Source of the DNA: Obrimoposthia wandeli
Taxonomy: Eukaryota
Length of the DNA stretch: 64,000 nt
NCBI GenBank assembly: GCA_977020255.1
Contig: CDROCS010004875.1
Span: 1 to 64,000 of the forward strand
Reading direction: 5' to 3'
Shown here: positions 1-37,800 of the stretch, one piece after another
Numbering within the stretch: the stretch's first letter is position 1
Layout of the letters: every line of letters begins with the position of its first letter
Notes under the pieces: model-generated
The model's database searches: none
What the model saw: the letters and a program-made list of their open reading frames with translations, nothing else
What the model was told of the DNA's origin: nothing
Position numbers and translations under genes: made by a program

Positions 1-689
1 CTATCTGTATACTGATTATTCGGTCTCCGTGGCTGTGAGTATATCCACCACCTCTGTTATTCCATGGCGGAGGTGAATTATATCTCTATAATTATTTCCA
101 AAATTATTATTACCGAAATTGTTCCAAATCTGTTAGTTCGAACTCTTTACTTCTCGTACAATCTCTCCGAATAGTGACCCATTTGTTTACACATTAGACA
201 ACATTATTCTCCCTCGAATATCTATCTTATTTTGTTCATCTTCGAACTGTACTCGACGACTAATTCTGTCTATTATCATAGCGTCCTCTAAAATCATTTC
301 TTTGGAAGTCGATTCAAAAGCAACTTCCTCGATTATTGAATCTTCCGTCACTACTTCCTGTATTATTTCCAAATCGAGAGTCGCTTCGCTCTCCTCTGTT
401 TTGCTTATAATTCCTATCGTCTCCTCTCCAAGGTTGGCGATTTCTGGATATCTCTAATAAATCTATTCCTGGAATCATCTCTATTTCTATTCACGAATCA
501 TTACTATTTCTACCTCTTGAATCATCTCGATTCCTGTTCCAAGACTCACTGTTATTTCTACCTCTCGAATCATCTCGATTCCTACTTCGAGAAGGAAGTA
601 TCTCTGTTTCCGTTACTGGATTCATCTACTTTCAAACTTATTTTGTCCATAATTTCGATTCTGAAAATTACTCGGTTCTGTTTATTCAC

Positions 690-1373
690 GAATACCTTTT
701 GTCTTATCGTCGTCTGCAGTCATTGCGTAAATTGCAATGCTGCGTTATTTTTACTATATTTTTCTCAATCTCTCTCGCCTTTCGCACGGCGTTATCAAAA
801 TCATTTGTATCCGATACTAATAACACTTTAATATCTTTTTTCAATCCTCCTCTAAATATATCTAACAAAACCTCTGCCATTTCATTTTGGTTCGGTCATT
901 TTCCGCTACTTGTGCTTCTTGAGCTACAGGAATACCAGGTTCTCATTATTCTTCTTGGGTACGCTCTTGCAGCCAGGTTCTCAAAGCTGTACGCGTATTC
1001 ATTCACGCCTTCGTCATGTTTCTGTTTCCGTTCTCTCATGAGTCGCTTATTTACTTTGGCTAAGTCTCCTAATACCAATTTTCCAATAAAAAGCATTTTC
1101 AACGTTGGCCAGTCTAAACGTTCTGCTTCTGTCAAATGTTTATACACTTCAAGTGCTAATCTGGTTAAAGTGTGCCTGTACTCGGACACATTTTTTCTTT
1201 ATCGTTCCATCATGAACATCTGCACAACTCGAATATTCTGCGAGGAAGTCACAAATACTTTCCTCATCTCCTTTAAACTTTGTAATCTGCAATGATCTGA
1301 AAAGTTGGGTCTCAACGTCATTTAAGGCTTGTGCCAACTGCTCGGCATTCATGTCACCTACATTCTGCTGCAT
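690..1373 (-). pseudogene. gag: Retrotransposon gag (capsid-like), broken by frameshifts and stops
   Basis: ORFs 1149-1373 (KFKGDEESICDFLAEYSSCADVH) and 896-1189 (WPTLKMLF...RERKQKHDEGVNEYAYSFENLAARAYP) resemble Retrotrans_gag. FDNAVRKAREIEK near 760-800 resembles the capsid C-terminal helix. An R/N/D-rich low-complexity tract follows at 450-600. Confidence 0.7.
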
Positions 1374-1788
1374 TATTATCTTGAGCTCTGGAAGTGAGCC
1401 ATATCTTCAATTATATCCTCTTCAACTATTTCTTCAATATTATTCAGGTGAACTTCCTCAATCACCTGGATTAGCTTATTTCAAAATTCTTCTGGGTTTA
1501 TGTCACCAAATAATTCAGTCAAATAAAAGCTGTCGGTTGAAACCGCTGATTGATTAACGTCTCTTTCTGATACGTTTTCTTCGACTCTAGTCTTTTCTGT
1601 TACTTTGTTATCTGTTTGGGGAACCTGTTCAAGTCGGTTAACTTTATTATTATTTATCTCTTCCTGGGAATCTGACTTTGTCTTCTAGTATTATACGCGG
1701 GTCCTTTTCTATTATCCGTTGTCTTATCAATTATGTATTCGTTTACGATATCAATTTACTTATTATTTTATCTTATTTCACAATTCTT

Positions 1789-2121
1789 ATTTTACGATTT
1801 TTTATCTCTTTAATTAGTTCGAGGACACGTCTCCCGACTTAACCTATTCAATTAATTACTTCGAGTATCAATCCACTCGATTCTCACTTTATCAAATTTA
1901 TTTACGATTTTTTATCTCTTTAATTAGTTCGAGGACACGTCTCCCGACTTAACCTATTCAATTAATTACTTCGAGTATCAATCCACTCGATTCTCACTTT
2001 ATCAAATTTATTTACGATTTTTTATCTCTTTAATTAGTTCGAGGACACAGTCTCCCGACTTAACCTATTCAATTAATTACTTCGAGTATCAATCCACTCG
2101 ATTCTCACTTTATCAAATTTA
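1789..2121. repeat. Three near-perfect tandem copies of a 110-bp unit in the retroelement leader
   Basis: tttacgattttttatctctt starts at 1791, 1901 and 2011. Confidence 0.95.
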
Positions 2122-2164
2122 CTGACTCGAGGAACAAATCTACTCGATTTCTCAAAAAACTTAT

Positions 2165-2450
2165 CTCAATTTACTTATATCTTCTTCTGAAACTTATTCT
2201 AAATTTGCTTATATCTTCTTCTGAAACTTATTCTCAATTGTCTATATTCTTCTGCTGAAACTTATTCTCAATTTATCTGAAACTTATTCTCAATATCTGA
2301 ACTTATTCTATTTACCTGAAACTTATTCTCAATTATCTGAAACTTATTCTCAATATCTGAACTTATTCTATTTACCTGAAACTTATTCTCAATATCTGAA
2401 CTTATTCTATTTACCTGAAACTTATTCTCAATTATCTGAAACTTATTCTA
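2165..2450. repeat. Degenerate ~20-bp tandem array (CTGAAACTTATTCTCAATTAT-like)
   Basis: ctgaaacttattct recurs about every 19-22 nt. Confidence 0.9.
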
Positions 2451-2476
2451 CGTGAATTCGCTGTGTCCGACGAGCT

Positions 2477-2495
2477 ATCCTCACTCGGGGCACCA
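2477..2495 (-). promoter_or_regulatory. Primer-binding site complementary to the 3' end of elongator tRNA-Met
   Basis: Minus strand reads TGGTGCCCCGAGTGAGGAT, 8 nt inside the LTR end. The vertebrate elongator tRNA-Met 3' end as I recall it (ATCCTCACACGGGGCACCA) matches 18/19. Confidence 0.8.
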
Positions 2496-3169
2496 CTTTA
2501 ATATGTTGGGGTTTCTATACGAGACTTGTATAGATCCTCTGGTGTGCAGAGGGCCCCAACGTGAGTTCGAAAAGAAGTAGGTCTTAAAGTTGGTCGTGGC
2601 CTACTTAGTGTTATGGTTGCCTATCTCTATTTCTTATCTGAAGGTGTTTGGTTTGACGTCTGTTGTTCTGAAGGGTTTAAAACAACGTTTTCTAATGTAG
2701 GAAATCGTTTATTGGTAGCACACTAAACTAAGACACAACAATACGTTTACGTACGTATTTTCTAAAAAGTATAGTAAAAATTCCTAAGACTTCTGTAAGT
2801 CTCTACAACAAGTGGGGATGAACCACGTATCGATTTTACTTTCGGGGTGATCGAGATTTTAGAGTTATTCCTCTGACTCGAGAATAAGCTCACGTTACAG
2901 ATTTTTCAACAATTTAACTCTGCTATCGGCTTGAACTTTTGAGGTTAAACCTTTATTCTTATGTCAATAAAGGTGAGAATGCAAAAACTTCTTTTTAAGT
3001 TGGGTAATTTATAACACAACTCTTTTAAAACTTTCTTTCAACTTGGACAAAAACTTAAATCGTGTTGACACTTATTGTAGGGTAAAGCTTTCTTTAATTT
3101 GGATAACTTTATATTGTTACGAATTCAGACGCGAATTGTCAACTCTGGACAATGTATGCGAATTAAATT

Positions 3170-3806
3170 TAGATGAACGAATTGTCAACTTCGGACAATG
3201 TATGAGAATGAACGAATTGTCAACTTCGGACAATGTATGAGAATGAACGAATTGTCAATTTCGGACAATGTATGAGAATGAACGAATTGTCAACTTCGGA
3301 CAATGAATGAGAATGAACGAATTGTCAACTTCGGACAATGTATGAGAATGAACGAATTGTCAACTTCGGACAATGAATGAGAATGAATGAATTGTCAACT
3401 TCGGACAATGAATGAGAATGAATGAATTGTCAACTTCGGACAATGTATGAGAATGAACGAATTGTCAACTTCGGACAATGAATGAGAATGAACGAATTGT
3501 CAACTTCGGACAATGCATGAGAATGAACAAATTGTCAACTTCGGACAATGAATGAGAATGAATGAATTGTCAACTTCGGACAATGAATGAGAATGAATGA
3601 ATTGTCAACTTCGGACAATGTATGAGAATGAACGAATTGTCAATTTCGGACAATGAATGAGAATGAACGAATTTTCAACTTCGGACAATGTATGAGAATG
3701 AACGAATTGTCAACTTCGGACAATGAATGAGAATGAACGAATTGTCAACTTCGGACAATGAATGAGAATGAACGAATTGTCAACTTCGGACAATGTATGA
3801 GAATGA
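3170..3806. repeat. 35-bp tandem array (~18 copies), each unit with an ATTGTC-N7-GACAAT inverted repeat
   Basis: Unit GAATGAACGAATTGTCAACTTCGGACAATGTATGA; attgtc at 3181, 3216 and onward. Confidence 0.97.
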
Positions 3807-4061
3807 ATTTATATGACTCGTCTCACCTATCCTATCCTAGTGCTATTCCGAGGTCTAGATCCGTGGAACTGTCAGAGGGCTGGCTCTGTTTGAATCCTTC
3901 AGTGGCGAGTTGGTCGGAGAGATGTCTGTCAATCCGAATTTTATTATCAATGCTATTTTATCGACGTGAAATTTGCGTAATTACCTTTGGTTCTTCTGGA
4001 AATAGTGAACGAATTGTCAATTTGGTGGCTTTTGATTTCTTAGCTTTAGTTTATCAACGTT

Positions 4062-4440
4062 CTAGTTTCTCAACGTTTTAGTTTCTCAACGTTTTAGTTT
4101 CTCAACGTTTTAGTTTCTCAACGTTTTGGTTTCTCAACGTTTTAGTTTCTCAACGTTTTAGTTTCTCAATTAGTTTCTCAACGTTTTAGTTTCTCAATTA
4201 GTTTCTCCACGTTTTAGTTTCTCAACGTTTTAGTTTCTCAATTAGTTTCTCAACGTTTTAGTTTCTCAACGTTTTGGTTTCTCAACGTTTTAGTTTCTCA
4301 ACGTTTTAGTTTCTCAATTAGTTTCTCAACGTTTTAGTTTCTCAATTAGTTTCTCCACGTTTTAGTTTCTCAACGTTTTAGTTTCTCAACGTTTTAGTTT
4401 CTCAACGTTTTAGTTTCTCAATTAGTTTCTCCACGTTTTT
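4062..4440. repeat. 16-bp tandem array (GTTTTAGTTTCTCAAC) with shorter deletion variants
   Basis: Visible periodicity, more than 20 units. Confidence 0.95.
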
Positions 4441-5090
4441 GAATTGCTATGGCGTAGACTTATATAGTCTCAGCCTTATTGCTTCCTGTCACTCAATCGC
4501 TGGCAGCTGCAAATTCCACTCAGGTCTCTGTTGGGGATTTACTGCTTCCTGTCACTCAATCTTGGGCAGCTGAAATAAAGTAAACGATTCAATCAATAAT
4601 CGTAACTTACAGCGATTTCTTCTCGACAATTAATTTCCTTGATTTCTTTTTGATTACTTGATTAATTAATTTTTTGCTTGCCATCTTTTTCCTTTTCAGA
4701 TTAACTTATATACATAACACATCATACACGACCTTCGTGGTCCTCTCAATATTTAATCTTATTTAAACTTAATAATTTTAATTTTGATTTTTAAAATTTA
4801 TTAAATTAAATTCTAACCTTGCTTTCAAGGATTTTCATTTCACTATAAAACCAATTTATTATTTTAATTTTTTAATTCCTAAACCTAACATAATGAAATA
4901 ATTCTTCAAATGCAGGTACGATCAAGAATGTACAAGGATTCTGATTTTAGGGTTATTTAATTAATTATAATGAAATAATTCTTCAAATGCAGGTACGATC
5001 AAGGATGTACATAAGAGTTACATATGTGCTTGTTTTTTTTCTGGTTGGGGTGAACAGTATTTTGAGCCTAATCATATTTAATTCATATAC

Positions 5091-6363
5091 GAATCGAATG
5101 ATTTCAGCTTGTAGAACATCCAATATTAATTGAACGACCCTGAAATATCATCCCGTTATACCAGGGAGTCCTACTGACAGGATTTTCCCGATGACAACAT
5201 GACAAAACAAAAGCGATGCTAATATTTTTGATTCAATTGTGTATTAATACAGTTCTTTTTTCAATCATTGACTTGTGCATGATTATTTAGGGAAGGTGCT
5301 GTTGGTTTATTTGGAATAGATAAAGCTATCTCAATCTGCAGTTGTAGAATCATAAGGAGGGTTCTGCTATAATTTGAAGACTATTCAAAGTTATTGATGT
5401 CATTGATTGATTACAAATTAATTCTGTATATTTTACTGTTCGAACGGTTTTGGAATATAATTTTGTTTTTTTATTATTTACATTTCATCTACTTAACTTT
5501 CTGAAACTAAGTGTTGGAATGCCATTCAACATGATTTTTTTATTGAACATTAATATTATTAATATACATTCTTTTATTTTTCCAAAGATAGAAGAATGCA
5601 TTTTTGTGAAAGTAAATGAAAGAAAAAATTAAACAACTCTTTGGCTATTTTGGTTGTTAAGGATTCTCAAAGCTATGGAAGATTCTCGAATTTTACCCTG
5701 AATAATTTTTTCATAAAAACAATCCAGATTATTTCAATTTTAAATATGAAATTGTTTAAATATATTTGTTTTGCAAATATTCAAATAATACACCTTCAGT
5801 TAGTATTACGAACTTAGTAAGTGTCAATTTATTGTTTATTTTCTAATCTTATTTAGATAAACAAGGGATAAAATTAGCCGTACGAAGGTCAATATGAATA
5901 GAACTTCAGAAAATTCTTCTCAACCTATCGATTTCTCGAAATCAAAAGTTCGCGATATGCAGAATACAGAATCTGTGGATGTTACTTGTAATTGTTGCCA
6001 GACAACCCAGACAGTGTTGCTCCCACGACACCAAGGAAACGCCCCATCGATACATAGTAAAGAGCTTACGGTAAACGAAAAAAAATTTCTTGTTATGATT
6101 GGGGGGTATTGGGTTTTGACACTAATCCTTTTTAATTCATGTGCGTATCGAATGTTTTTAGCTTGTAGAACATCCAATATTAATTGAACGACCCTGAAAT
6201 ATCATCCCGTTATACCAGGGAGTCCTACTGACAGGATTTTCCCGATGACAGCATGACAAAACAAAAGCGATGCTAATATTTTTGATTCAATTGTGTATTA
6301 ATACAGTTCTTTTTTCAATCATTGACTTGTGCATGATTATTTAGGGAAGGTGCTGTTGGTTTA
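5091..6363. repeat. Dispersed direct duplication of ~215 bp (5091-5310 and 6146-6363)
   Basis: Near-identical block gcttgtagaacatccaatattaattgaacgaccc...gggaaggtgctgttggtttat in both places. Confidence 0.9.
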
Positions 6364-8182
6364 TCTTGATAATTAAATTTATTTATGTGTACATTTTAAT
6401 TCAATTTTTACCAGGATATTCTGGCTTAATAAATTTAAATGTTGCTAATGCATATGTTGTGTTTAATATACGAGCTGCATCGCATATTATCGAAACATGT
6501 CAATTAATTAACACAATTTTATAATTACTATTTCCTGAAAATTTTTTACTAATATTCAGAGAATTCTGCATAATAAAATCAATATGAAATTTAACATCAC
6601 CAAATAAATTATGTTTTTTAATTTTCCGATAAAACTGATATTTAAATCGAAAATTTATTCTTATGGTGCACAACTTAAGATAATGCATAAATAACATTAT
6701 TTATTAGCTAATAAATTTAACTGTTGACGTGTTTTTAAATACATATTTGTGATTATGCAATTTGTATAATCAATATATGCATGTGTGTAATAAACTTACA
6801 TGCATATTATCGAAATATTCTAAATTTCATTATTACAACACAATTTACTACAAAGTAACAGCAAATTATATTGATATCACAAATTATAATTATCCTAAAA
6901 GATTTTAGTAATAACTTCGATTTAGCGTAGTTTGAAAGAAACTATAATTGTTTATTTAAGTCAGAGTTGTAACAAATGTAACTGCATTTTTAAAATTCTA
7001 AATTAATTACTGAATAATTTTACGTATCAAAGCTTCAAATTCAAAGATTTTATCAAAGAATTTATGAATTTGACATTAAAATTTTGCTATAAAAATCTGT
7101 TATTTAAATAAAAATGTATTGTTTTTTCTTTTGTTACATCACTTAAGATAAAGAGAAACCTTAAAAAATATTATTTTATTATCAAACACCACCGTATCAT
7201 AAGTCATCAATGAACAATGAAATCAGATATTTAACTTTCATAACATTCATTTTCTTCAAAGCAATGTAATAATTATTATAAATGAACTTTTGGAAATATA
7301 AATACAACAATGATAGTACATGTATCTGTATCTTATTTTCAAAATGATTTGCTATTCAACTATTGATTTGCTCACTCTGCTTAATTCTTACACGTAGTGA
7401 TGCACAATTATTCATCGACTTTTTGGTTTGTTTGTTTAGCGTTTGTTACAATGTCCTACAATCTCGGGTATTATGATATTTTATATTTATAAAAAGAAAG
7501 TTTGTTTATTTCTTTTGATACACCCCGTATATTAAATAACTGTCGATGTGGTTTTAATAGATATTCTGATTTTGCAATTGGTAGAATTTTTAAATAAAAT
7601 CAATTAAAAAAAAATAATATTTTAAAGTCTTTTTAGTCATTTTATGATAAAAAATAATTTGTAGAAATATAATTCCATAACAGGACCTACATAGCGATAT
7701 CTGTACAGATACTATCATGTTAACAAATATTTTTCAAAAATTACGTTTAAATATTCTTAAAACGTTGCATATTATGTTGATCAGTATGATAATAGGTTTA
7801 AAATCATCTTCATATGGGCTGGATGTAAATACCTAAAATCTTTTGATATTATCGCTGTAGCAAGTTTTACTCAAATATTCCCATTTAATTATATGAACGA
7901 TGCCTACACATATGGAGTCTACTTAATAAATACATGTAGATAGTTTTGATATATTGCATCTTTATATAATATATTGGATTATTGAATAATACAAAACTCT
8001 CAAGACCAAAACGTTTATGTAAAGAAAACTCTAATAAGAACAGGAGATATATTTAGACGATGGGTATGATGAATCAGACCTGTAATATTTTAAGAATCAA
8101 AGTGACTCAGCACTAAAATAATAGGTTTAAAATTATCTTCATATGGAATGGATGAAAAATACCCAAAATCCTTTGATATTAT

Positions 8183-8250
8183 GTGGATGTGTCCGGTCTA
8201 ATTCACACCCCCTGTCCTTTAAAACTGTGTATGTGTGTGGAGTGAAATTT
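8183..8250 (+). repeat. Left TIR of Polinton A (terminal AGTAG missing)
   Basis: Reverse complement of 16092-16167 apart from a few substitutions and an 8-bp C-run deletion. Confidence 0.85.
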
Positions 8251-8454
8251 TCTACCCCGCCCACCCAACACTCAAAAACTAATTAATCTCATATAACACC
8301 CTTTAAAATTGAAAATCTCATAATGCTCCCAAAAAAGTGAGGAAGGTCCTGGGAGGCCGTTTAGTGGGCCAAAGCGTGCCCTCCGGGCCCGCAGTGGTTT
8401 GACGAGCAACACTTACAGGGTCGCGAAAATTGTTTAAAAGAGTTTAAAAGCAGC

Positions 8455-8640
8455 TGCCCGTTCTTCACATTCGTTTTGGCACCAGACTTTGATATAAACC
8501 AATGCCAACTACCAAAGGAAGGAAATTTACGACTAGAAATTAAGTTCAATGCAGCTTTAACACATCCTACTACGGTGCTTATTTACGGAGTATTTGATTC
8601 GGAAATACAAATAAATAAAAACAGAACTGTCATATTATAA
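8455..8640 (+). pseudogene. C-terminal fragment of Polinton major capsid protein (double jelly-roll, PY)
   Basis: CPFFTFVLAPDFDINQCQLPKEGNLRLEIKFNAALTHPTTVLIYGVFDSEIQINKNRTVIL* fits the Polinton MCP C-terminal pattern (F..DL.PD...GNLRLEIKF..AL....YAEFD..IEI...R.V). Confidence 0.85.
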
Positions 8641-8641
8641 A

Positions 8642-9020
8642 ATGGAGTAAGACATATTTTAAATTTATATTTATTAATTTTATTTAGTTCAAAACAAGTA
8701 AAAGAATCAGCAGAGAAGGTCCTGGGTGATAAATTCAATGGAGTTTATCCTATTGATATGATTCCATTTTTTCAATCTGGAGGTTACATTATCAATACTC
8801 ATACTTCGAATTTACCAGGATAACATTGGATAGCTATTATGTTAGAGAGTGGACAATACATGTATTTGATCCACTTGCAATGTATTATCCACACAAACTT
8901 GTTTCAACTATTCAAAAAGGACGAAGAAGAGTATTTTACAACAAGATACAATATCAGGATCCTGCGACGAGAAACTGTGGACATTTATGTATTTTATGGT
9001 TATCGTTGCAAAACAATTAG
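8642..9020 (+). pseudogene. Polinton adenain-like maturation cysteine protease with a 41-nt intron; one stop and one frameshift
   Basis: ATG GA | intron 8647-8687 (gtaaga...tttag) | T TCA gives MDSKQVKESAEKVLGDKFNGVYPIDMIP...IINTHTSNLPG*HWIAI...FDPL...QYQDPATRNCGHLC, with catalytic H, D, Q and C motifs present. ATG lies 1 nt after the MCP stop. Confidence 0.88.
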
Positions 9021-9279
9021 TGTGTTATAAAAATAAAAATTTTAAATGTTTTATTTTGAATTATTTTTTAAATCTCTAAAAATATAAGGGTAAAATAATA
9101 TAAGGCAATAGACATTTTTTTAATACATTTATTAATCACAACATCACAATGAGATATGTCAGCAAAGATAAGGTCCATCCTAAAAAAGTATTGAAATAAC
9201 AAATAAGTTAGAGTCTAGGTGCCATAGGGATCTAAAATTTAAAAAAACTAAACTAAAAAAATCAAAAAATGAAAACTGT

Positions 9280-12200
9280 TTAAATTCTGAAGTGTCCATA
9301 AGCCAGGCTAGCGTTCTTTTCTACCCAAAAGCGCTTGTCGTCATTACTACTCAAAGCGATTTTGGTTGATTTATGGGAATACAGTTGATGGGCTCTTGAA
9401 ATAAATCTAGTTTGCCCAACGCTTTCAATACACCCAGTATCATAAACTTTCCGGTAGGCCTCATGTGTAAGATTGTTTCTTCCCACACCCTTTGCTCTCA
9501 TTGAACATGTATTATTAGATGCATGTAAACTGTAGCATTTAGGGCGTAGAAAAATACAATCATCATACGAAACCTGTCCCTCGCTTTCATCCTTAAATTT
9601 CCCGATAATGTCCTTTAAATTCATAGAGTGTAGAGGATGGTTAGCGGGATATTTATGGGTATCTAGTAAGTTGTCCCAAACATTGCTGGTAATAATTGAT
9701 TATTTAAACTAACATTCCTACATTCTAAAAAGAAAGAGTCAGTGTCCCCAGCTGCGATTTTAATCTCACAATTAAATTCTTGTCGGTATTTCTCCAATTC
9801 TATGTATTGAAGCTCATACATTCTGAGTTTAGAAATGTCTAAAACCGTTTGACCTATATAACTCGGTCGATCGAGACAAATACTCTGTTTTCCTAATAAC
9901 ACTGCTACCAAGTCATCTGCAATTGTAAAACTACGCTTGAAGTTGTACTTGCTAGTATATGTTATTAGTTTACGCTTATCATTGCAAAACCGTAGACAAA
10001 TACGTTTCCGCAAGTCCTCTACAGTTTTTCCAAAGAGACTATTACTTTTTAACTTGTAAAAATCTCTATCGAATTTGCTAGTGGCCAAATTACGTTTTCT
10101 TGAATTCTTCTCAATATAGTCTTTAAACACAAAGTTTTGACTGAAGCTTATAGCACGATGAATTCGAGTAACTTTCGCTCCCAACTTTAAGTAGAATTGA
10201 AGAAGCCGCCAATGCACAACATAATTCAACTTGTTTTCATGGGTTAACAATAATTTCTTAACCTTTGAATTAGGTGGGCATTGATGAACAGGCGCTACTG
10301 GAAGATCATCTAATTTATCATGCACATTGGGAAGGATTTTTATGTCCACCTCAACCAAATAGCCGACGTCGGATGAAACTGTATCAACAGTAGCCAAATC
10401 TGTCATCAACTTATTCAACTGATCCACATCATAAACCCACTTAAAGTTGGCATGAGGTAGAATTGAGTAAGCGCCCACCCATACAAATTATTAATATCGA
10501 TGTACAGAATCTCTGTGGATTGATTTTTGACAACATGATGTTTGTTGACAAAAGTCATTCCACCGCGTATACCATAATCATACATTTGATACATCGCGGG
10601 ATCTTGCAGTAACTCGATATTTGTTTTCCTAATAACACTGCTACCAAGTCATCTGCAATTGTAAAACTACGCTTGAAAACTACGCTTGAAGTTGTACTTG
10701 CTAGTATATGTTATTAGTTTACGCTCATCATTGCAAAACCGTAGACAAATACGTTTCTGCAAGTCCTCTACAGTTTTTCCAAAGAGACTATTACTTTTTA
10801 ACTTGTAAAAATCTCGATAAATTTGCTAGTGGCCAAATTACGTTTTCTTGAATTCTTCTCAATATAGTCTTTAAACACAAAGTTTTGACTGAAGAGTTTT
10901 TATTGCTGTTGCCCATGAAAGACCAGGTAAACTAAAGAAATGCATGGGATCTAGCCCATCTTCTCCTAAAGACTTTACACGAAAGGACTCAAAAACATCA
11001 GCTAAAAGATAAATGTCTAACTTCATATAATAAAGCATATATTCGAGAAGATTTCAACAATTATTCACCCAAAATGTACGGGCCTCATTATCGTCTTGAA
11101 GACTTACACCCTCAAATTCAGTTATGGGTGGGATTTCAGTTGTATTTTCTAAATCTGCGAAAGTTTTCGCAAATTTATACGGAAAAATCCCCTTATCGTT
11201 AACCGAAGCTGGGAACACTGACTGTGTAATTGGCCATGCATTTAAAGATGCCGTTAAATTTTTTAAAGACCCGCTCAAAAACTGTAGAGAATCTATGAAT
11301 CTTAAACTGCAGAATTCAGTATATGCAGTTAAAGATAAATATTTGAAGTTTGAGGTATACATGAAATTTCCCAAGAGCTTAATGTACCCAACGCGTATTT
11401 AAGTATATGATGCAAATCATATCCTTTGAGGTTATGAAACACGATGGGAATGCGTGGTTTTTTATGGAGACGACGGCCAATTTACAAAGGTTGCACGCCG
11501 CTCCCAAGTATCGCCCCGTAACATGATCGTGATCTCTGACTAACTTAGACTGGGTTCCACACAAATAACATAATCTACAAGAATTAAAATTAACCCAGTC
11601 TATGCCTGTCATGATCATTGCTTGATGAGCATTGAGATCATACCACGGTTTGACAATTGTTGTTCCTAATTCCTCTAATTTTAACATAAAATCTAAAATA
11701 CAATTTGAACCGGAAAATTTATGATACTGGGTAATATTGGGGCCTAAGAATAGTAGTCCTGCCGAAGCCGGTAGGTGAATACTCTCATACTGGTCGTGCA
11801 ATGCTAAAATTGACTCAAAATCTGCATACACCCTGAATTCCACGGGTATGCATTTTGCCCAATCCCTGAATTTTAAATCCTTATCCTTAGGCATGCTATA
11901 TAGCGTATTGTCATCAGGATTCAGTGAACATAATTTCAAATGTTTGCTGTAAGAGAGCTCGGATCGGAACCCATGCAAACATCTATGACACCACTTACAC
12001 CTTATCCTAACCGGTAAGGCTCCATTATCTAAATTTAGAAGACGATCTAAACTGGGAATTGCAGCATAATGGAATTTATTATTCTGTTCTAGCAAAATTA
12101 AGTTGACCTGAGTCACCTCATTTTTGCTCCTATAAATTACATCTACAAAGGGATTTTTAAAAATTTCTTCATCTGTTACATTAACTGGGATATCAGTATT

Positions 12201-13904
12201 ATATTTGAATACATTAATACTCAAGTTATTAAGATGTTCAAATCTTGATATCGCAGTTAATTTAACAGTAAAATCTATTCCATGATACTGCAATTCATTT
12301 AAAAAAGGGGTATATTTACTGACACGCTCTCTATGCTCAGTAATTACATCCCTTTTGAGGATGGCCAACACGCTATACAGAAAGCAAAGGTTATCACTGT
12401 TTTGTACGTTAACAATGGAACGTGAAAGTTGAAGAGATCTAGGTGAAGGAATGTATGAACTCCCCGAAAGATATATCATGTCAGTGAACTTTGTTAGAAC
12501 AAAGCTAACATCGTGAATTCTAACTAGAGTCCATCCACTACCCAATAATACTCGCTATAATTAGCAATTTTTTCATCAAGGTTTCTTCCAATTTCAGTTA
12601 CAAAATTATCATAGAATACAGTTGCTTTATGTGAAATTACCCAAGTTTTAGTTTCCTCATTGACATTTTTAAACTGCACTGTTGCGCAAAATTGAACCTT
12701 AGCCTGTCCTAATTTAGTCACTTCTGATTTTAAAAGATTTTCAATATTTGAATCTACACCTACGTTTAATAAAATTTCATTTCCTAATGGCACCTTAACT
12801 ATAACATATTTATTATTTAGGTGATACTCTATAGTAGCACCGTTTTCTCTACGTTTTTTTGGTGGGACCTTATTAAGAAATTGGCCTCGCCTCTTTCTTC
12901 CGTTTGTCGCTGACAAACCTCCCCCTAATTGAACGGGAAGACAACTATTTATATTAGCAGTTGACACAAACGCAGCTGAGATTGAAGGTGCTGCTATTGG
13001 TGATGCTGCCGATGTTGAGGCAATCGCAGCTGGTGTAGACGATGCTGCTGGAATAGATGCTGCCGCAGATGTAGAGGCTGCATTTGAAGCTGACCTTGCC
13101 GATGAAGAAGCGGCTGTTGTAGAGGTTAGTGCTGCTGAAATAAATATAATAAAAAATAAAAATATTTTTAAAAATTACCTCTAAGGCGTGCTAACATCGA
13201 TGTAGGCACTCGAGATGGGGGAGGCATAGCTGTCCTATCGGATGACGGCTGTATCATGGTACTTCCTGAATAAAAAACAAAAAATAAAAAATATATAATT
13301 TAAAAATAATAATAAAAAATACCTAATGAAGGCAATCCAAGTTGAGCTGGAATGAAGTCCTCTTCATTGACGAAATCCATCCAGCTGTCGTCCGACATCT
13401 CGACGAAATCGGATTCCTCGATGGTCTCTAACCATGAGTTATCGCTCCACTGCTCTATCTCGAAATCTGACTGGGATATGTCATTCATCCACTCATTGTT
13501 AGACATTTGAGTGGATGGGTCAGAATCAGGAGCCGGGAGACCAATCGCAGGACTGTAAAAGGGTTGATCGACTGCAACTGGAATTGGAGGTGGAGCGACC
13601 TGTGAATCGCGCACCAATTGCATGATATCCCTCTTCTTGTTGTTGGCCGTGAAACACGATAGATGAGCTTGATGTTCACTGAAGAAGTCTCGAAACTCCT
13701 TCTCCTCCATTGTTCTGCAGAAGGGGCAGACAAAGAAGTGAAGCCCGCGAGACTTTGTCCTGTAGTATGCAGACATTGTCTCCATGCAGGACTCTCCTCC
13801 ATGCGGAGGAGAGGCACCGCAATACGCAGGGAATAGGTTACAAGTAATCTGAAATAATAAATATTAATAAGGAAATAATAAAAATAAATTCTTACCATAG
13901 GCAT
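9280..13904 (-). pseudogene. polB: Protein-primed family B DNA polymerase of Polinton with a spliced N-terminal extension (exons 13904-13896, 13848-13323, 13265-13179, 13134 onward); several frameshifts
   Basis: Motifs: GSGWTL..GSSYIPSP..IVNVQNSDNLCFLYSVLA; endonuclease VII-like CYLC..VRDHDHVTGRYLGAACNLC; exonuclease VYADFES, LRFIDSLQFL, YMKLDIYLLADVFESFR; polymerase YIDINNLYGWA, KLKSNSLFGK, AGDTDS, IGKFKDE, RPKCYS, RAKGV. Three GT-AG introns (47, 57, 44 nt) join in phase. Confidence 0.92.
10628..10893 (-). repeat. Ectopic ~260-bp copy of polB segment 9893-10145 inside polB
   Basis: taataacactgctaccaagtcatctgcaattg...cacaaagttttgactgaag occurs twice; the copy also has a 13-bp tandem duplication (aaactacgcttga x2). 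Confidence 0.9.
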
Positions 13905-14266
13905 TATTTCAAATTGTCGGGGATTTAAATGAAGAAAGTGTTTGCTTATATACTAAAATTTATGCACACATGCTCTTTTCCTATTGGATTAAAAAATTGA
14001 GAAGGTTTGTTTATCTGTTAAATGGTCGAAAAAATTATTTTTTTATTCCTCCAATCAAAAGATTTAATTGTAATTGAATGAAAATTATGAATTAGAAGAA
14101 TTGTTTATCTACATGTCAAGTAATAATAAGAAAGACTTAAACATTTTTTATATGCGCAATGGTCACCATGATTACTATATGGACAGCAAATATTTCGTGG
14201 AATTTTTAATAGATGATCACGTGAAATATTTAAAGTATTCAACCTCAATTTAGGAAAATATATTTT

Positions 14267-14518
14267 TTAAGTCATATATTTTTTGCCATCCATGTCATCT
14301 AAAACATAAAAAATTCCATTTTCAATTTCAAAATTATATTTAATAGTATCGAAAATACATATTTCACAGAAAGCCTTATGTCCTTCTTTCCATTTTAATA
14401 AATGGAAATATTTAGTTAGATATAAATTAGTAAATTTTTTCTTATAATCTAAACTTTTAAATGGGATATCTATATGAAATATGAAATGCAAAGGATGAAA
14501 AACGTCGCATACATCCAT
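14267..14518 (-). CDS. Small hypothetical Polinton accessory ORF (83 aa)
   Basis: ATG-initiated ORF within the element, co-oriented with neighbours; no motif recognised. Confidence 0.4.
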   Translation of the reverse strand: MDVCDVFHPLHFIFHIDIPFKSLDYKKKFTNLYLTKYFHLLKWKEGHKAFCEICIFDTIKYNFEIENGIFYVLDDMDGKKYMT

Positions 14519-14673
14519 AATACATAATTATTTTATAATATAATCCCCATTTTTGTTAATGAAAGCCTCAAAATCTATGATATATTCCTGCATAATTATC
14601 TAAATTTGTAGCAAATCCCGTTGTTTATAACGAAGTACTTTCATGTTAAGATTGGAATATTTTGTCAATTCTC

Positions 14674-15036
14674 CTATGTAACATAATCAATAAAGACAAA
14701 ATAATAATCAAAAATTAATTTTTTTGTAGAAGGACCCTCTTTCGGTTTAATCTGGAGGATTCTCTTTCTTGCTGCTCGCCGAACATCCTCCATCTCTTCT
14801 CTTCTTTTTTCATCCACCTTCCATTTTTCCAATTCGATCTTCTTATTCCACTCCACGATTCGACGGCGTTCTGCTAGCCTCCTATCCTGTATCTCCACCC
14901 GATGATTCCACTCTGTCGCGACAGCAGTATACAAATTTTGATTGAGGACCCTCTTTCTTAAGTCCCCTTTCTTCTCATTTATTCTGATGTTTGCTTCAAT
15001 CTTCGTCACCAGACTCTTCATTTTAATGAATTCCAT
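14674..15036 (-). CDS. Polinton accessory ORF (120 aa), charged coiled-coil with a weak SERTA-like motif
   Basis: Open ATG ORF, richer in GC than its flanks; contains DLRKRVLNQNLYTAV and an E/R/K-rich helix. Confidence 0.55.
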   Translation of the reverse strand: MEFIKMKSLVTKIEANIRINEKKGDLRKRVLNQNLYTAVATEWNHRVEIQDRRLAERRRIVEWNKKIELEKWKVDEKRREEMEDVRRAARKRILQIKPKEGPSTKKLIFDYYFVFIDYVT

Positions 15037-15230
15037 TTTTTTAATTATGAAAAGGTTAATAAATTTGAACCTATATATATAAATTAAAGATATTTTTTAA
15101 TCCAATTAAATGATATATTTTTATTTATCAAATGAGTGTTTAATAAATCTATAACTTATCATTGCAAATAAACTTAAAGATAGTATTTCTACATTTAAAA
15201 AAATAAATATTAAGAAGAAAACATATGAAA

Positions 15231-16050
15231 CTAATGTTTATAAATTATATTTTTAAACATCTTTACGAAGTCATCATTGGGATCATTCGGGTCGTAATCC
15301 CTCCGACTAAGTATTATAGGAGAAAGCGGTACTGGTTCCTTCTTCTTTGGCCGGCCCGGTTTCTTTTTCAGCTTCACCGGTTGCTTTGTAGCAATTGTCC
15401 TTCCCTCAGGTTTTGGCAATAGTTGTCGCAACGTTTTGGGAGGAGGTGCAGCTGATGTTGATGGTTCCGACGTAGAAGTCCTCTTCCTCTTCCGTGGAGC
15501 TTTCTTCTGTTTCTCCTCCTTCTCACGCTGAAGCTGGCGTGAGACGGCATCCTGTTGCCCACGCGAATCTGGAAGCATTGCCGGTGAATCCAGTTCCGCC
15601 AGGAATTCATCCAATCCAGCGTCATCCCAGGCCCTCTTCAAGTTCTGGCTGGTTGTTGGACGAGGAGAAGCAGTCTCCTGCAGGCGTCGTTGACTTGAGG
15701 GCGGACTTATCTCAATCGGCGAGACTGGGATCCTCTCATATAGGATTGGTCCGTCGTCCACTGGAGATTGGAGAATCTCCTGCTGGCCAATCACCGTCTC
15801 AGAATAAGGACCAATTGAGGTTTTACATTTTCTCGAGCGCCTCGTCTTCTTCACCTCTGCCCTCTTCGTCCGTTTCCGCGAGAAAGGAGTAACTTATCCC
15901 CAAGTCTCCTCAAATATTTGGACGGGTTCCTGCAAAATATTAATAAAATTTAAACATATAAATAATTTACCTCAATGATGGGCAGGTTAGCCTGTTTCAC
16001 CAACTTGGCCTTCTTCCGCGTGAGGGTTTTGACCCGATGGCGTTGCGGTT
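15231..16050 (-). pseudogene. Basic Pro/Lys/Arg-rich Polinton accessory gene with a 41-nt intron, one in-frame stop, 5' end truncated by the palindrome
   Basis: Exon ...KPQRHRVKTLTRKKAKLVKQANLPIIE | intron 15970-15930 (gtaaat...tgcag) | EPVQIFEETWG*VTPFSRKRTKRAEVKKTRR..., in frame with ORF 15231-15854. Confidence 0.7.
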
Positions 16051-16052
16051 TC

Positions 16053-16172
16053 CCCCCCTTGTCCTTTAAAACCGTGCATGTGTGTGGAGTGAAATTTCAC
16101 TCCACACACATGCACGGTTTTAAAGGACAAGGGGGGAGGGGGTGTGGATTAGACCGGACACATCCACCTACT
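16053..16172. repeat. Right TIR of Polinton A containing an 84-bp perfect palindrome (16053-16136)
   Basis: 42+42 bp arms centred on GAAA|TTTC at 16094/16095; terminus ...CCACCTACT. Confidence 0.95.
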
Positions 16173-19873: not shown

Positions 19874-22800
19874 CTGAACACAACATGAAACTGGTAACCT
19901 AATCTCCAATACACTATTTTAAACGAACGCATTGTACTTGTACACCAGATAATACAGTAATTGATACAATTTAATGTGTCAATTTTAAATCATAAGCTTT
20001 ACTTTTTCTAACTGACACTGAACTATTTGTTGAATTTGAATTTATAATAAAATAGAATTCGTATAGCAACATCAATCGAATATTAACTTCATTCATGTCG
20101 ATAAGCTATTAAAATTAATTATAATAACTTCGACTATTATAATTTACAACTTATATATTTGAAAAGCTACTGTTTTGAGATACAAATTAATAATGCAATA
20201 TTTCATTCGTTAAAACCTAATAAATCCACTGTCGATTACGTGTTCTTCATAATTGGTTTGTTTCTGTGTAAAGGTTCTAAAAAATGTAACCTTATCTAAA
20301 ATAAATTGATTTCTTCGATATTCCAAACTACCCTAAGTTCTTGTCTGCAGAGTGGTTCAAAATAACAGTTCCAACTTCAATTTCTAGTAATTCACGAAAA
20401 TGCAGAAATCATTCGTATATTTTTATTTTTTGTATGCATACAAACTCTACTTTGTTAATTATTGATAATTAAGCTGTAATAGTTATTTTAAATTACCCTG
20501 TATAATGTGGACTCATGTAAATACCGACAAATATAAAGTTGATACCATAAATAATGGGATAGGCCGACACAAATATTGTCAGCTTTTGTGATCAGCCATT
20601 GAATCCAAGTGTCAATAATTCATTTATAACCAAATTGCATAACAATTTGAAAGGACTGGATGATCATTCATTTATTAAGTCACATAAAATGCCTCTTATG
20701 CTGAGATTAGTTCTTGGATCATCGAATATAGGAGTATAGGAGAAAAACAAATTTGATAATACGATTATCTGAAGAATCTCAATCTCAAATCAAATGTTAA
20801 ATTTCAATATTTATTCAAATTATTTGATTTACTTATACTTTTTCTGATGAAGGTTTGGATTAATAAACAGAGCGTTAATATTAAATAAATCGAAGTTTTA
20901 TCACTCAAAAAGTTTATTTTATCCATCGGTAAGTTGTTGTAAAAATTCAGAGCATATATTTCAAATATTCCATCAATATGTTTATTATTTGAGAACAGTT
21001 ATAATCGTTGCTTCTAAGATGCATTTACATGTTCACTGCACCAGCTTGATAAGATCATATAAATATTTGGACCTTTGCGAGACAATACTTTTGTTGTTGT
21101 TGATAATATGCAGGATTTGAATTCAATTTGGTATTGACCGGCTGCCAATGAAGCTTCACTAACTGTTGTACTTGTACTGGGATGTTTCTTTTATTTGAAT
21201 ATTATTCTGACGGAAATATAATTATAGTCAAGAACTTAGGATTAATATATTTGAAGTATATACTGAGATTTTAGAAATTCAAGTTTGTTGGAAAATTTAG
21301 TCACATAGCTATTTACTAACTTGTCCACGATCTGTACGACCTTGACGAAAGCAATAGATGCGGCCTCTTCTCCGAGAATGTGGATCGTGGGATTCAAAAT
21401 ACTCATATTCACTGATTTGGCATCCCGCTTCGAATACACTGTCAATGGCAATGTGTATATTTGTCAAAGTCACTTGGAGATTGAGAAACAATCAGTCAAA
21501 TCTTCGAATTTCTTTTTGAATAAATTCTGACTTACTATAATCGTGGTCAGGAACCACAGATAATAGACTTAAAATTGCAGATGCATAACGATACGAACAA
21601 ATTCTACGAACGTAACAACGGCTACAACTACTCCACTCACCGTTGTTGAAGAGGAACTTGTAGTAGTCGATCCCTTCAATTAGATTACCACAAGTATCGG
21701 GTTCGAATATCGTTATCTGAGGATCCACGAGCTTCCTGCATTTAATAGTTCGGTTAGAGATACCTAACCATTCTTCCACAGGTTTACACAAGGGTTCCTA
21801 AAATGATACTAAATATGTTTTAGAGCAAGATTTATCTGGATTGGGGAAGTTGATATTTTGCATTGATATTAATAATAATTGCCAATTACATATTCCTTAT
21901 TTTTTCAAAAACTTTAGAACATCTAGGAATATAAATATGATATTCTTAATCAGTGAAAAAAATGCTATCGAATACATCAATATTATTCTGGATTAAATTT
22001 TGAAATTAAAGATTTTCATGCAGTGTAATCTATCATTTATTTTGAGAAAAAAATAAAGATATAAGATTTATTTAAAATTATGCAAAGCATCATCCAGAAA
22101 GGCTTCAAAAAGAGATACTGTCCTACTCTGTGAGGGTAATATTCACAATTTGTTCTCATATATCCCTATATATATATGTGGATAAGCTATAGGTGGTATT
22201 TGAATAAGACCGTCTTAAATTGTGTTTGTGCTATCAGCGCAGCTTGTCCAGCGGGATCGGCAAATGTAATACGGTGTAAAACTATAATAGGAAACACACA
22301 AAAAGGTTTACATGTTACGTCCAATTGGAAATGTTGCAGACGGAAGTCGAAGAAATCCACCAATTGATGGTGACAAAGTTGACAATATTAAGGAACAATT
22401 TTAATCAACTCATCTTCATAAATCCGTCACCAAAGTTTAAAATACCATACTCAACAATACGTCAGAAACAAAAGCCTTAAGTATAACTTAAAATGAGGTA
22501 ATTTTATGTGAAAACGAAATACCAACTTTCAGATAATGATTTTCTGACAAGGAAGAACCTTAGCAATGGTATGGTGGAAAACTGCATTAAAACTACATTA
22601 TGTAAGTCAAAAAAGACCTTTAATATATGGCCATCTCGCTCAGTTTTCATAAAAAAGAAACCCCTCCACATTAGATGTTATTTCAGTAGGATGGTGGTCC
22701 ACTTCATTTGGCTAGATCAGTAGTGTAGTTGTTCGACAATTCATCTTTAATAGTTTGGCTTGCCCATAGTCTATATTTGACTTCACAGGACTAATTTCTT

Positions 22801-34800: not shown

Positions 34801-37800
34801 TACTATGTTTGTCCCACTCACACGAACGAAGAGAAGTTGCCATTGGCGATGGCGGATAACAGCGACTCAGTTAGTTTGAGTATTTCCTGCTTCCGGTCTG
34901 TCAGGTCATCAGATTCATGTTAACTTTGTGACAAAAAATCAATAGCCAACTCATTATAGGCAGTGTTGAGTAAAAACAAGTTATGATGGGTAATAGCTAA
35001 TTACACAGCATTCAATTATATAAATTTTAAAAAAAATTTAAGTATTTCTGCAAATTTTATGAAACTTTATAAATAGTACTGACCTTAATTGGAAATGTCA
35101 TTCAACGGTTATTGTGAAAATACATCCCAAAAACATTCCTAAATGACATCGTTTCTCTACATGTTTGAAAATGTAAATATTGCATCCAAAGTCAAAAGTT
35201 TTATTTATATTGAATATTAGTCACAATTATATTAGAACGGTTAGAAAAGTTCACATTTTTAGTTTCCTTCTACTTTGTTTCGACATTTTGTTATTTTATT
35301 ATTATAATAAAACACATTCATATTCATCTCAATTGTTGGTCGTATATTTATTACCGAGGATTTTGAATAGCATAAAATAAAATTCTCTACGTAACACTCG
35401 CAAATTTGAAACTATTTTGAGCAATGAAATAATGTTGTAAAATGGAACTAGTTGATTAATTGAACAATAACTTAGGACACTGTAGATAGGCTCAAAAACA
35501 AAGCCTGATTAATGGTTACCTAAAAGAAAAATATATTTTCACCCAATTTTCGACTTTTCTAACAAGATCCAAGTTACAGAATTGATTATGTGCTAACACA
35601 AATTTTTATTTTACAACAAAAACGTTATTATTTTGGCTAAAATTACAAAGGAAATATAATTTAGTGACAACGACTGATTTCATTGATATTTATTGTTTAG
35701 GCAGAAAATATTTAATTTACGAGTCAACAAAGTTTATATCTTAATGTGTTTTAAATGCCAAACAGCTTATAAAAGAAATTCGTTAAAAAATGTTAAGAAT
35801 AAAAATATATTTTCAAATTTCTGAATCAAAATATGATTTCTTCTAATTAATAAAATTTACCCTTTTATTTTTATTTTATATTACAGTTTGACTAAAAAGC
35901 TTAATGTAATTTAAGAAAAGTAGGTAGAAGGATGGAGTCTAGACCACTTGACCCCCCCCCTAAAGGGTGACATACCATAAGGATGTCTCGCCACACCATA
36001 AGGGTATATGTTGCCTCACCTCCGGTGACCCAACATATACCCTTATGGTATGACACCCTTTAGGAGGAGGCGGGGAGGGGAGGGGTAGCGGGGAGGGGTC
36101 AAGTGATCTAGACTCCATCCTTCTTTGATATACCACTATGGTCATCCATAGTTTAAAGGGTCAAGTGGCTTAGTCTCCACCCTTCTTTTTGAGATATACC
36201 ACTATGAAAGGGTCAAGTGGCTTAGTCTCCACCCTTCTTTTTGAGATATACCACTATGAAAGGGTCAAGTGGCTTAGTCTCCACCCTTCTTTTTGAGATA
36301 TACCACTATGAAAGGGTCAATTGGCTTAGTCTCCACCCTTCTTTTAGTGATCTAGTCTCCACCCTTCTTTTTGGTTAACCACTAATTCAAAGGGTCAAGT
36401 GGCTTAGTCTCCACCCTTCTTTTTTGTGATCTAGTCCATAATGAAAATTTAGGATAAAGTTCACACTTATCAATTAAGAAATGTGGTTTTTAACACACAC
36501 ATACACTATTTTATGTGAAATTTAAACTAAAGTTCACTCTTATAAGTTAATGAATGTATTACGTAATCACACACATACTATTTTATGTGAAATTTAGATC
36601 AAAGTTTTTCCTAGGCTTTCACATTTATAGAATTATGATAAAATTTCTTTAAATAACTTCAATTATATATTAAAATAAAAAATAAAATAAGAAAGAAGTC
36701 AGAGAATAATACAAAATTAAACACATTTATTATGTAATTTCATAATATCATCTTCAAACTTAAGTGAATAACATTTACAAAGTAAGAAAGTCCATTCTTT
36801 ATACATTCTTTTCGTTTCAACGACTAAGTTACAACGGAATTAATAGAAAATTAGTAAAAAATATTAATTTATTTGAATATTTGAATGAGAGTTTGAATAA
36901 ATGAGAGGTAGAATGAATGTAAATGAATAAAATTATGCATGCAAGTATGAATGTCATTTACAAGTAAGAGTCTTAGCAAGTGAATGTAATTTTAAAAAAA
37001 AATAAGAGTGTCGATAGTTTGATTGAATGCAAGTGTAATTTAGACTATAAGTAAATTAAAATAGAGTTTTCGTTGAATAAATTATAGTTAGATTGAATGC
37101 AAGTATGACGAGCAAGTGAATGATAGTTTGAATTTCAATACAAGTAAGCGGGTTTAGCAAGTGAATGTAATTTTAAAAATAAGAGTGTCGATAGTTTGAT
37201 TGAATGCAAGTGTAATTTAGACTATAAGTAAATTAAAATAGAGTTTTCGTTGAATAAATTATAGTTAGATTGAATGCAAGTATGACGAGCAAGTGAATGA
37301 TAGTATGAATTTCAATACAAGTATGAATGTAATTTAAAAATAAGTGTCGATTTTGATTGAATGCAAGTGTAATTTAGACAAGTAAATTAAAATAGAGTTT
37401 TCAGTGATTGAATGTATGACGAGCAAGTGAGTATGAATTTCAAGTGAAAGTGAATAATTTTAAAAATAAGAGTGTCGATAGTTTGATTGAATGCAAGTGT
37501 AATTTAGACTATAAGTAAATTAAAATAGAGTTTTCGTTGAATAAATTATAGTTAGATTGAATGCAAGTATGACGAGCAAGTGATTGATAGTATGAATTTC
37601 AATACAAGTAAGTGGGTTTAGCAAGTGAATATAATTAAAAAAAATAAGAGTGTCGATAGTTTGATTTTTTAAATTACTTGATATTTTTTGTCATTGTCCG
37701 TTTAATATAATATGAATATTCAATTTATTTCTTCAAAAATTCATTTTATATGTTAAATAATATTCTTTATCACATTATTGTGGTTTTTATCAAGTTATTT

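Follow-up and report, generated by a model that had tools for sequence, protein, structure and literature searches.

The locus examined here raises the question of whether the DNA polymerase gene (polB) of a Polinton element is interrupted by introns at its 5' end, as an initial annotation had proposed, and, if so, what its upstream exons encode. The window (the whole 64-kb stretch that was analysed) is one contig of an AT-rich genome of 1.35 Gb. The Polinton polymerase gene of the annotation was recognised by the profile of protein-primed family B polymerases (PF03175), which was matched both in the window (E 1.8e-9) and in a family copy (E 1.5e-26). An rve (retroviral-like) integrase (PF00665, E 1.7e-13 in the family copy) is present in six of eight whole elements and missing from the window copy, and an A32-like packaging ATPase (PF04665, E 1.3e-6) is present in five of the eight. 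These whole elements, chosen by their terminal repeats only, are 15.8-17.5 kb long; the terminal inverted repeats begin with AG, and a 6-bp target duplication was found in six of the eight. By its polymerase, integrase, ATPase, ends and target duplication, the window element is a Polinton/Maverick. The 29-nt Polinton end has 14,451 exact matches in the genome (control, 0), and the family is a very high-copy one with thousands of end copies. A frame of 415-426 aa adjoining the protease gene, which we take from its motif and position to be the capsid gene candidate, had no sequence match in Pfam or PDB.

The window copy itself (8180..16172, minus strand) spans about 8 kb between terminal-repeat remnants and lacks the integrase, the ATPase and most of the capsid region. 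It is a dead relic, deleted, rearranged and broken, and therefore incapable of replicase expression; its gene structure is inherited from the active phase of the family. A perfect 42-nt palindrome of terminal-repeat sequence lies at its rearranged left end (16053-16136). There are also many inverted pairs of the Polinton end with a spacing of just 150-190 nt, which represent minimal non-autonomous derivatives (e.g., C1:72187-72369 and C3:194845-195027 of G000). An 8-kb element at 35919-43879 of the window, whose long inverted arms begin with AGTAGG and enclose a very AT-rich, satellite-filled middle, is possibly another non-autonomous derivative. The window also holds a broken hAT transposase (PF05699, PF14291; 26339-28846, minus strand) and a frame with a match to the CaMKII association domain (21492-21797, minus strand; E 3.5e-6), which is probably a host exon.

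All three AT-rich GT-AG introns of the initial annotation, with phases 0, 1 and 1, were found exactly where it had placed them on the minus strand. Exon 1 (13896..13904) is a 9-nt micro-exon with the predicted start codon, identical in 30/30 loci and 9 nt long in 86/87 copies; the start exon of human adenovirus encodes three residues. A TATA-like box with a putative promoter role (13946..13953) precedes the start codon by about 48 nt, and family 3 (L172 and L173) has the same motif at a comparable distance. Intron 1 (13849..13895; 47 nt, phase 0) is followed by exon 2 (13323..13848; 526 nt), which encodes a Cys/His domain (about 13848-13600), a Pro-rich stretch and acidic Trp/Asp repeats. Then come intron 2 (13266..13322; 57 nt, phase 1; 48-104 nt among copies), an 87-nt linker exon 3 (13179..13265), whose length is kept in 83/87 copies and differs by multiples of 3 in the other four, and intron 3 (13135..13178; 44 nt, phase 1; mostly 31-52 nt among copies). 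Exon 4 begins with an Ala/Ser-rich linker (12900..13134) that shows no sign of amino-acid constraint and carries a polymorphic in-frame ATG in some copies; a basic patch and the terminal-protein (TP, D1) domain follow (12480..12899), and the rest (9280..12479) comprises a vOTU-like domain, an EndoVII-like piece, the exonuclease and the polymerase, with several stops, frameshifts and a duplication in the window copy. The acidic repeats of exon 2 (13,500-13,340, minus strand) have a central Trp and number one additional unit in subfamily B, where exon 2 is 93 nt longer, in frame.

The introns all read GT..TTCAG, with GC contents of 0.13, 0.07 and 0.07 for introns 1, 2 and 3, and the flanking exons of 9, 526, 87 and 611 nt have a GC content of 0.39-0.53. 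When each exon is read in its predicted phase, its whole codons contain no stop until 12524, and neither split codon can be a stop because each begins with G, so the joined frame of the annotation is indeed open. The N-terminal extension exists as well; its size, put at about 270 codons, was counted as 263 (789 nt; exons 1-3 plus exon 4 to 12967). The small frameshift that had also been noticed is present near 12,555, at the last helix-strand loop of the TP domain, and is private to the window copy, being absent from 29/29 other copies and 8/8 whole elements. All eight whole elements, selected by their ends only, have the four-exon layout. Three consecutive joins in phase had been considered unlikely by chance, and the AT-rich pattern GTA..TT[CT]AG indeed matches only these three introns on the minus strand of 9280-13960, with 0 matches on the plus strand and 0.004 per shuffle (500 shuffles); this control is weak because the pattern was written after the introns had been seen and because shuffling destroys AT tracts, and the comparative tests carry the weight.

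For the comparison among copies, 87 copies from two subfamilies were used for the splice-site counts, and 59 copies picked by DNA alone for the indel and selection tests; the remaining 28, picked by their exon-2 protein score, were dropped from the selection test because of bias. The alignment of other copies, suggested by the initial annotation as a check, showed that both splice ends are kept while the intron middles drift: GT and AG are retained in 86 and 87 copies for intron 1, 86 and 85 for intron 2, and 85 and 83 for intron 3 (of 87 related copies, so that these counts are not independent events). Intron 1 barely drifts within the family, having the same length in 83/87. The GT-AG ends, the pyrimidine-rich 3' end and the conserved ends with a drifting middle are as in U2 spliceosomal introns. 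Shared indels are in frame in 10/12 cases for exons versus 3/16 for introns (Fisher p=0.0016; 59 copies), and the length differs by a non-multiple of 3 in 43/59 copies for intron 2, 3/59 for exon 2 and 0/59 for exon 3. Only 25/59 copies combine an intact start with all six splice dinucleotides and a phase that stays open as far as 12,900.

Selection was examined on variants common to at least three copies. In the 5' part of exon 2 (the first 82 codons), 12 synonymous and 5 non-synonymous variants were found (w=0.11, p=2e-5), while the two shifted frames gave w of 5.4 and 2.5; as judged from these alignments, this part is under purifying selection in the spliced frame only. Constraint was also seen in exon 3 (6 synonymous versus 3 non-synonymous, w=0.19, p=0.016) and in the TP region (8 versus 1, w=0.03), again in the spliced frame and not in shifted ones, and no significant constraint was detected among the 59 copies in the 3' half of exon 2 (w=0.34, p=0.15) or the exon-4 linker (w=0.94). 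Rare variants were closer to neutral, which fits the expectation after insertion. As for the fixed differences between the subfamilies (87-copy set), those in the exon-2 domain were significant (8 synonymous, 3 not, p=3e-4), and those in the other four regions were not. The size and composition of the polB introns are within the range of the presumptive introns of host genes: in host chaperonin genes, profile matches point to AT-rich GT-AG introns of 37, 41, 45, 69, 85 and 90 nt. Alongside these intron-bearing genes, some 20 Cpn60/TCP-1 frames occur on separate contigs, each full-length (about 550 aa) and free of introns, a puzzling expansion (G000).

That the upstream exons belong to polB, as the initial annotation held, is borne out by relatives in which the same domains are fused without interruption. 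A library protein, P0002, was retrieved with an exon-4 region alone, and over its first 72 residues it aligns with exon 2 (29% over 65 aa, E 3e-8). It is encoded at L111, a Polinton whose polB is a single open frame of 1,298 aa. In the same genome as the window, L161 has one open frame from the Cys/His domain through the TP, and L172 and L173 have the Cys/His domain followed by the TP; their frames carry private breaks, but there is no AT-rich gap. Families 3 and 4 and L111 lack introns 2 and 3. By contrast with these two, a phase-0 GT-AG intron lies within the first three polB codons of families 3 and 4 (L161, L172 and L173), 0 or 1 codon before the first Cys versus 2 codons in the window family. 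No intron lies inside the polB coding start of L111; a 56-nt AT-rich GT..AG stretch at L111 20-75, which ends 18 nt before the polB ATG and just downstream of the contig start, is a possible 5' untranslated intron. Among 20 flanks of family 2, the TP region was found in five and the Cys/His domain in four. A tree of 15 TP/OTU rows placed the window family within a starred clade of nine with no resolution inside, so introns 2 and 3 are probable later gains on grounds of parsimony.

The initial annotation also placed the terminal-protein region in the N-terminus of the polymerase. The TP is indeed part of polB, and it is located in exon 4, not in the added extension. In the model of the exon-4 frame, residues 29-151 match the little-finger domains of Y-family polymerases (Z 7.8, rmsd 2.6, 93 aligned) and residues 163-296 match OTU domains (Z 6.9, rmsd 4.2, 106 aligned); as far as these models go, with middling Z scores of 6.9-7.8, a TP-like D1 and then a vOTU D2 form the expected pair in the expected order. 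Since both folds lie in exon 4, the extension is in front of the TP and consists of the Cys/His domain, the acidic repeat and the Ala/Ser linker. The TP, OTU and polymerase are in one frame in the family copies and in L111.

The Cys/His domain was modelled with a confident fold (pLDDT 79.6) and, from its residues, is probably zinc-binding. Its fold had no match at Z >=5 among 48,161 PDB representatives and none at E 0.001 in BFVD, and profile searches gave no match in PDB or Pfam; this absence does not show a new fold. Against RING and C2H2 zinc fingers, RING-like leads from Atlas reached only 0.82-0.87, and the best VIA Z was 2.6. The library search yielded 27 proteins with the domain, 19 of which have the full C-C-H-C plus C-x2-C..H-x2-H spacing and three of which have a TP blastp match. 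A search with P0002 residues 1-100 found only P0002 itself, and a search of viral contigs gave no match with P0002 and only two distant loci with alignment A1. Six of the 27 library proteins (P0034, P0037, P0038, P0041, P0042 and P0045) share a Gly at one column just past the domain, followed by a tail rich in Ile, Phe, Leu and Tyr and a stop, and we suspect that these tails are what read-through of an intron shared in another clade would give. Tandem modules in two or three copies occur in P0024, P0026, P0029-P0031, P0033, P0035 and P0043, some after C2H2-like fingers, and in P0025 and P0047 the module is joined to the TP of a different clade.

A second gene of the element appears to be spliced in a similar place. 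The likely maturation-protease gene (8642..9020, plus strand) has a 5-nt start exon (8642-8646), a 41-nt phase-2 intron (8647-8687) and a main exon from 8688, which is broken in the window copy. Its identity is suggested by matches to PF00770 (E 0.036-0.038, under the cut-off) and to the S273R protease (E 0.65, weak), and the order of His, Asp, Gln and Cys presumably fits an adenain-like protease. The intron has an identical codon position and phase in the window family (12/12), in family 2 (L129-L158; 30/30), in family 3 (L172 and L173) and in L111 (4996-4960, minus strand). In every family checked, a tiny exon and a phase-2 intron of 37-44 nt stand 18 codons before a G-V-[FY] motif, and the intron sequences are unalike among families; the distant L128 has an ordinary in-frame protease start. 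This start-proximal intron at one codon in four divergent families is new and would be the best sign of old, inherited splicing. Its retention across families whose TP regions are only 31-38% identical (23% for the short row of L173) argues for a long dependence on nuclear, host-spliced expression.

Other genes of these elements were also inspected. The 3' part of an accessory gene (15231..16052, minus strand) contains a 41-nt intron-like stretch (15970-15930), for which 8/16 matches fit the strict pattern; this left-end gene with acidic Trp/Asp motifs has several intron-like stretches of 38-44 nt (seen also in C225 of G000 at about 68,000-69,000). Gene order varies among the Polinton families. 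A 160-aa frame is common to all of them and always adjoins polB or the protease gene (about 14,640-14,150 of the window, minus strand; L111 4144-4623; L131; L172); it has no Pfam match, and its D-x-E motif is one that we take to recall DEDD exonucleases.

Overall, the comparative evidence strongly supports the observation as real at the level of sequence. The polB 5' end is interrupted by three GT-AG stretches that are very likely removed constitutively by the host spliceosome, and the spliced message would encode a polyprotein of some 1,400 residues starting with the probably zinc-binding Cys/His domain. Transcription by Pol II would start from the TATA-like box, the host spliceosome would remove all three introns, and the predicted order of domains is Cys/His, acidic and Ala/Ser linker, basic patch, TP, vOTU and exonuclease/polymerase. 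If the vOTU cleaves the TP off, as proposed by Krupovic et al. (10.1101/2024.03.18.585575), the Cys/His domain would stay with the TP on the DNA ends, where, speculatively, it would most likely help to bind these ends or chromatin. Intron 1 and the protease intron, both start-proximal and common to sister families, look old, and introns 2 and 3 are probably later gains in the low-constraint linker of the window family.

An unlikely variant, not mutually exclusive with constitutive splicing, is that the full join is real and that retention of intron 2 or 3 decides whether a small regulator or the full replicase is made, in loose analogy to adenovirus E2B. When retained, intron 2 stops the frame in 49/59 copies and intron 3 in 53/59 (intron 1 is in frame in 0/59), and the adenovirus mRNAs for pTP and for the polymerase have common 5' exons but a different last junction (PMC11304566, in the portion available). 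However, stops are expected by chance in AT-rich introns, no conserved retained-intron peptide was found, and families 3 and 4 and L111 manage without introns 2 and 3. A broader scenario, which we regard as doubtful, holds that this Polinton clade gates both replicase and protease behind ancient start-codon introns that predate the divergence of the families, that retention of intron 2 switches between a small zinc/acidic regulator and the full TP polymerase, and that the zinc domain rides on the DNA ends. If true, the clade would comprise viruses that are obligately nuclear and regulated by splicing, as adenoviruses are.

It is distinctly unlikely that two products are made, with exons 1-2 encoding a separate small Cys/His and acidic protein terminated within intron 2, and polB having its own start in exon 3 or at an exon-4 ATG. 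The stops met in a retained intron 2, the Met codons within exon 3 and the many library proteins with the Cys/His domain that are short or repeat-only would suit such an arrangement, although these short proteins may result from gene calls truncated by introns or by the end of a contig. The main point in favour of this splice-free reading is an in-frame ATG at 12997, upstream of the TP, in 20/29 (DNA-picked) and 15/28 subfamily-A copies. The initial annotation had named an internal polB start as evidence against splicing, and it finds partial support here: the ATG occurs in subfamily A but is missing from 30/30 subfamily-B copies and from the window, and only 22/59 copies have an aligned in-frame ATG anywhere in exon 4 above 12,600. 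Moreover, the relatives fuse the Cys/His domain and the TP in one frame, introns 2 and 3 are conserved at both their ends, and indels in the exons preserve the joined frame. That the stretches are unspliced AT-rich insertions or decay merely resembling introns is hardly credible even in an AT-rich genome, as the frame would then break between domains fused elsewhere, the ends are conserved while the middles drift, and the protease intron has the same position in four families.

The comparison also reveals a whole clade in which pPolB begins with an unclassified Cys/His domain. The premise that Polinton core genes are usually described as intronless agrees with the accessible text of two reports: Barreat and Katzourakis (2021, PMC8097293) apply the term to the core genes of vertebrate elements, and in nematodes introns are restricted to cargo genes (Widen et al., 10.1101/2022.07.12.499685). 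Because surveys define intact Polintons by intronless frames (PMC8097293, as far as its available text goes), they would count spliced families as dead or truncated and misplace the starts of the polymerase and the protease. The literature searched, including the accessible parts of 10.1101/2023.08.22.554363, PMC5803895, PMC12220804, PMC11296320, 10.64898/2026.10.13.758929 and PMC6431247, contained no account of Polinton polB or protease genes with inherited spliceosomal introns; Repbase, Kapitonov and Jurka 2006, Pritham 2007 and supplements lay outside this search and may hold spliced annotations.

Compared with known systems, on what the available portions of the sources describe, the present elements resemble animal Polintons/Mavericks in their length, AG-starting terminal inverted repeats, 6-bp target duplication, pPolB, rve integrase, A32-like ATPase, and likely protease and capsid genes. 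Unlike the intronless core genes of the vertebrate and nematode sets (PMC8097293; Widen et al.), polB and the likely protease gene here carry constrained intron-shaped interruptions. The pPolB described by Krupovic et al. (2024, 10.1101/2024.03.18.585575) has a D1 terminal protein and a D2 vOTU, with release of the TP by vOTU cleavage proposed; like it and Alpha PolB (Starrett et al., PMC8502044), the present protein has a little-finger-like TP, an OTU and a PF03175 polymerase, with a Ser/Gly loop between the last TP helix and strand, while the extra Cys/His domain and long linker ahead of D1 set it apart from the former. The nearest published cases, in the texts at hand, are the spliced adenovirus E2B transcripts and the introner-bearing dinoflagellate elements. 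Adenovirus E2B (PMC11304566, PMC13027316) likewise expresses a protein-primed replicase by splicing (predicted here), its pTP frame being formed from two exons; in contrast, the TP and polymerase here share one frame, the introns are local and 44-57 nt long, and no shared leader was found. Dinoflagellate maverick-polinton-like proviruses (PMC11957031) carry spliceosomal introns inside full-length Polinton-like elements, as appears to be the case here; those introners are mostly young mobile introns gained after integration, whereas the introns described here seem to have been inherited through a large expansion, with one of them common to divergent families.
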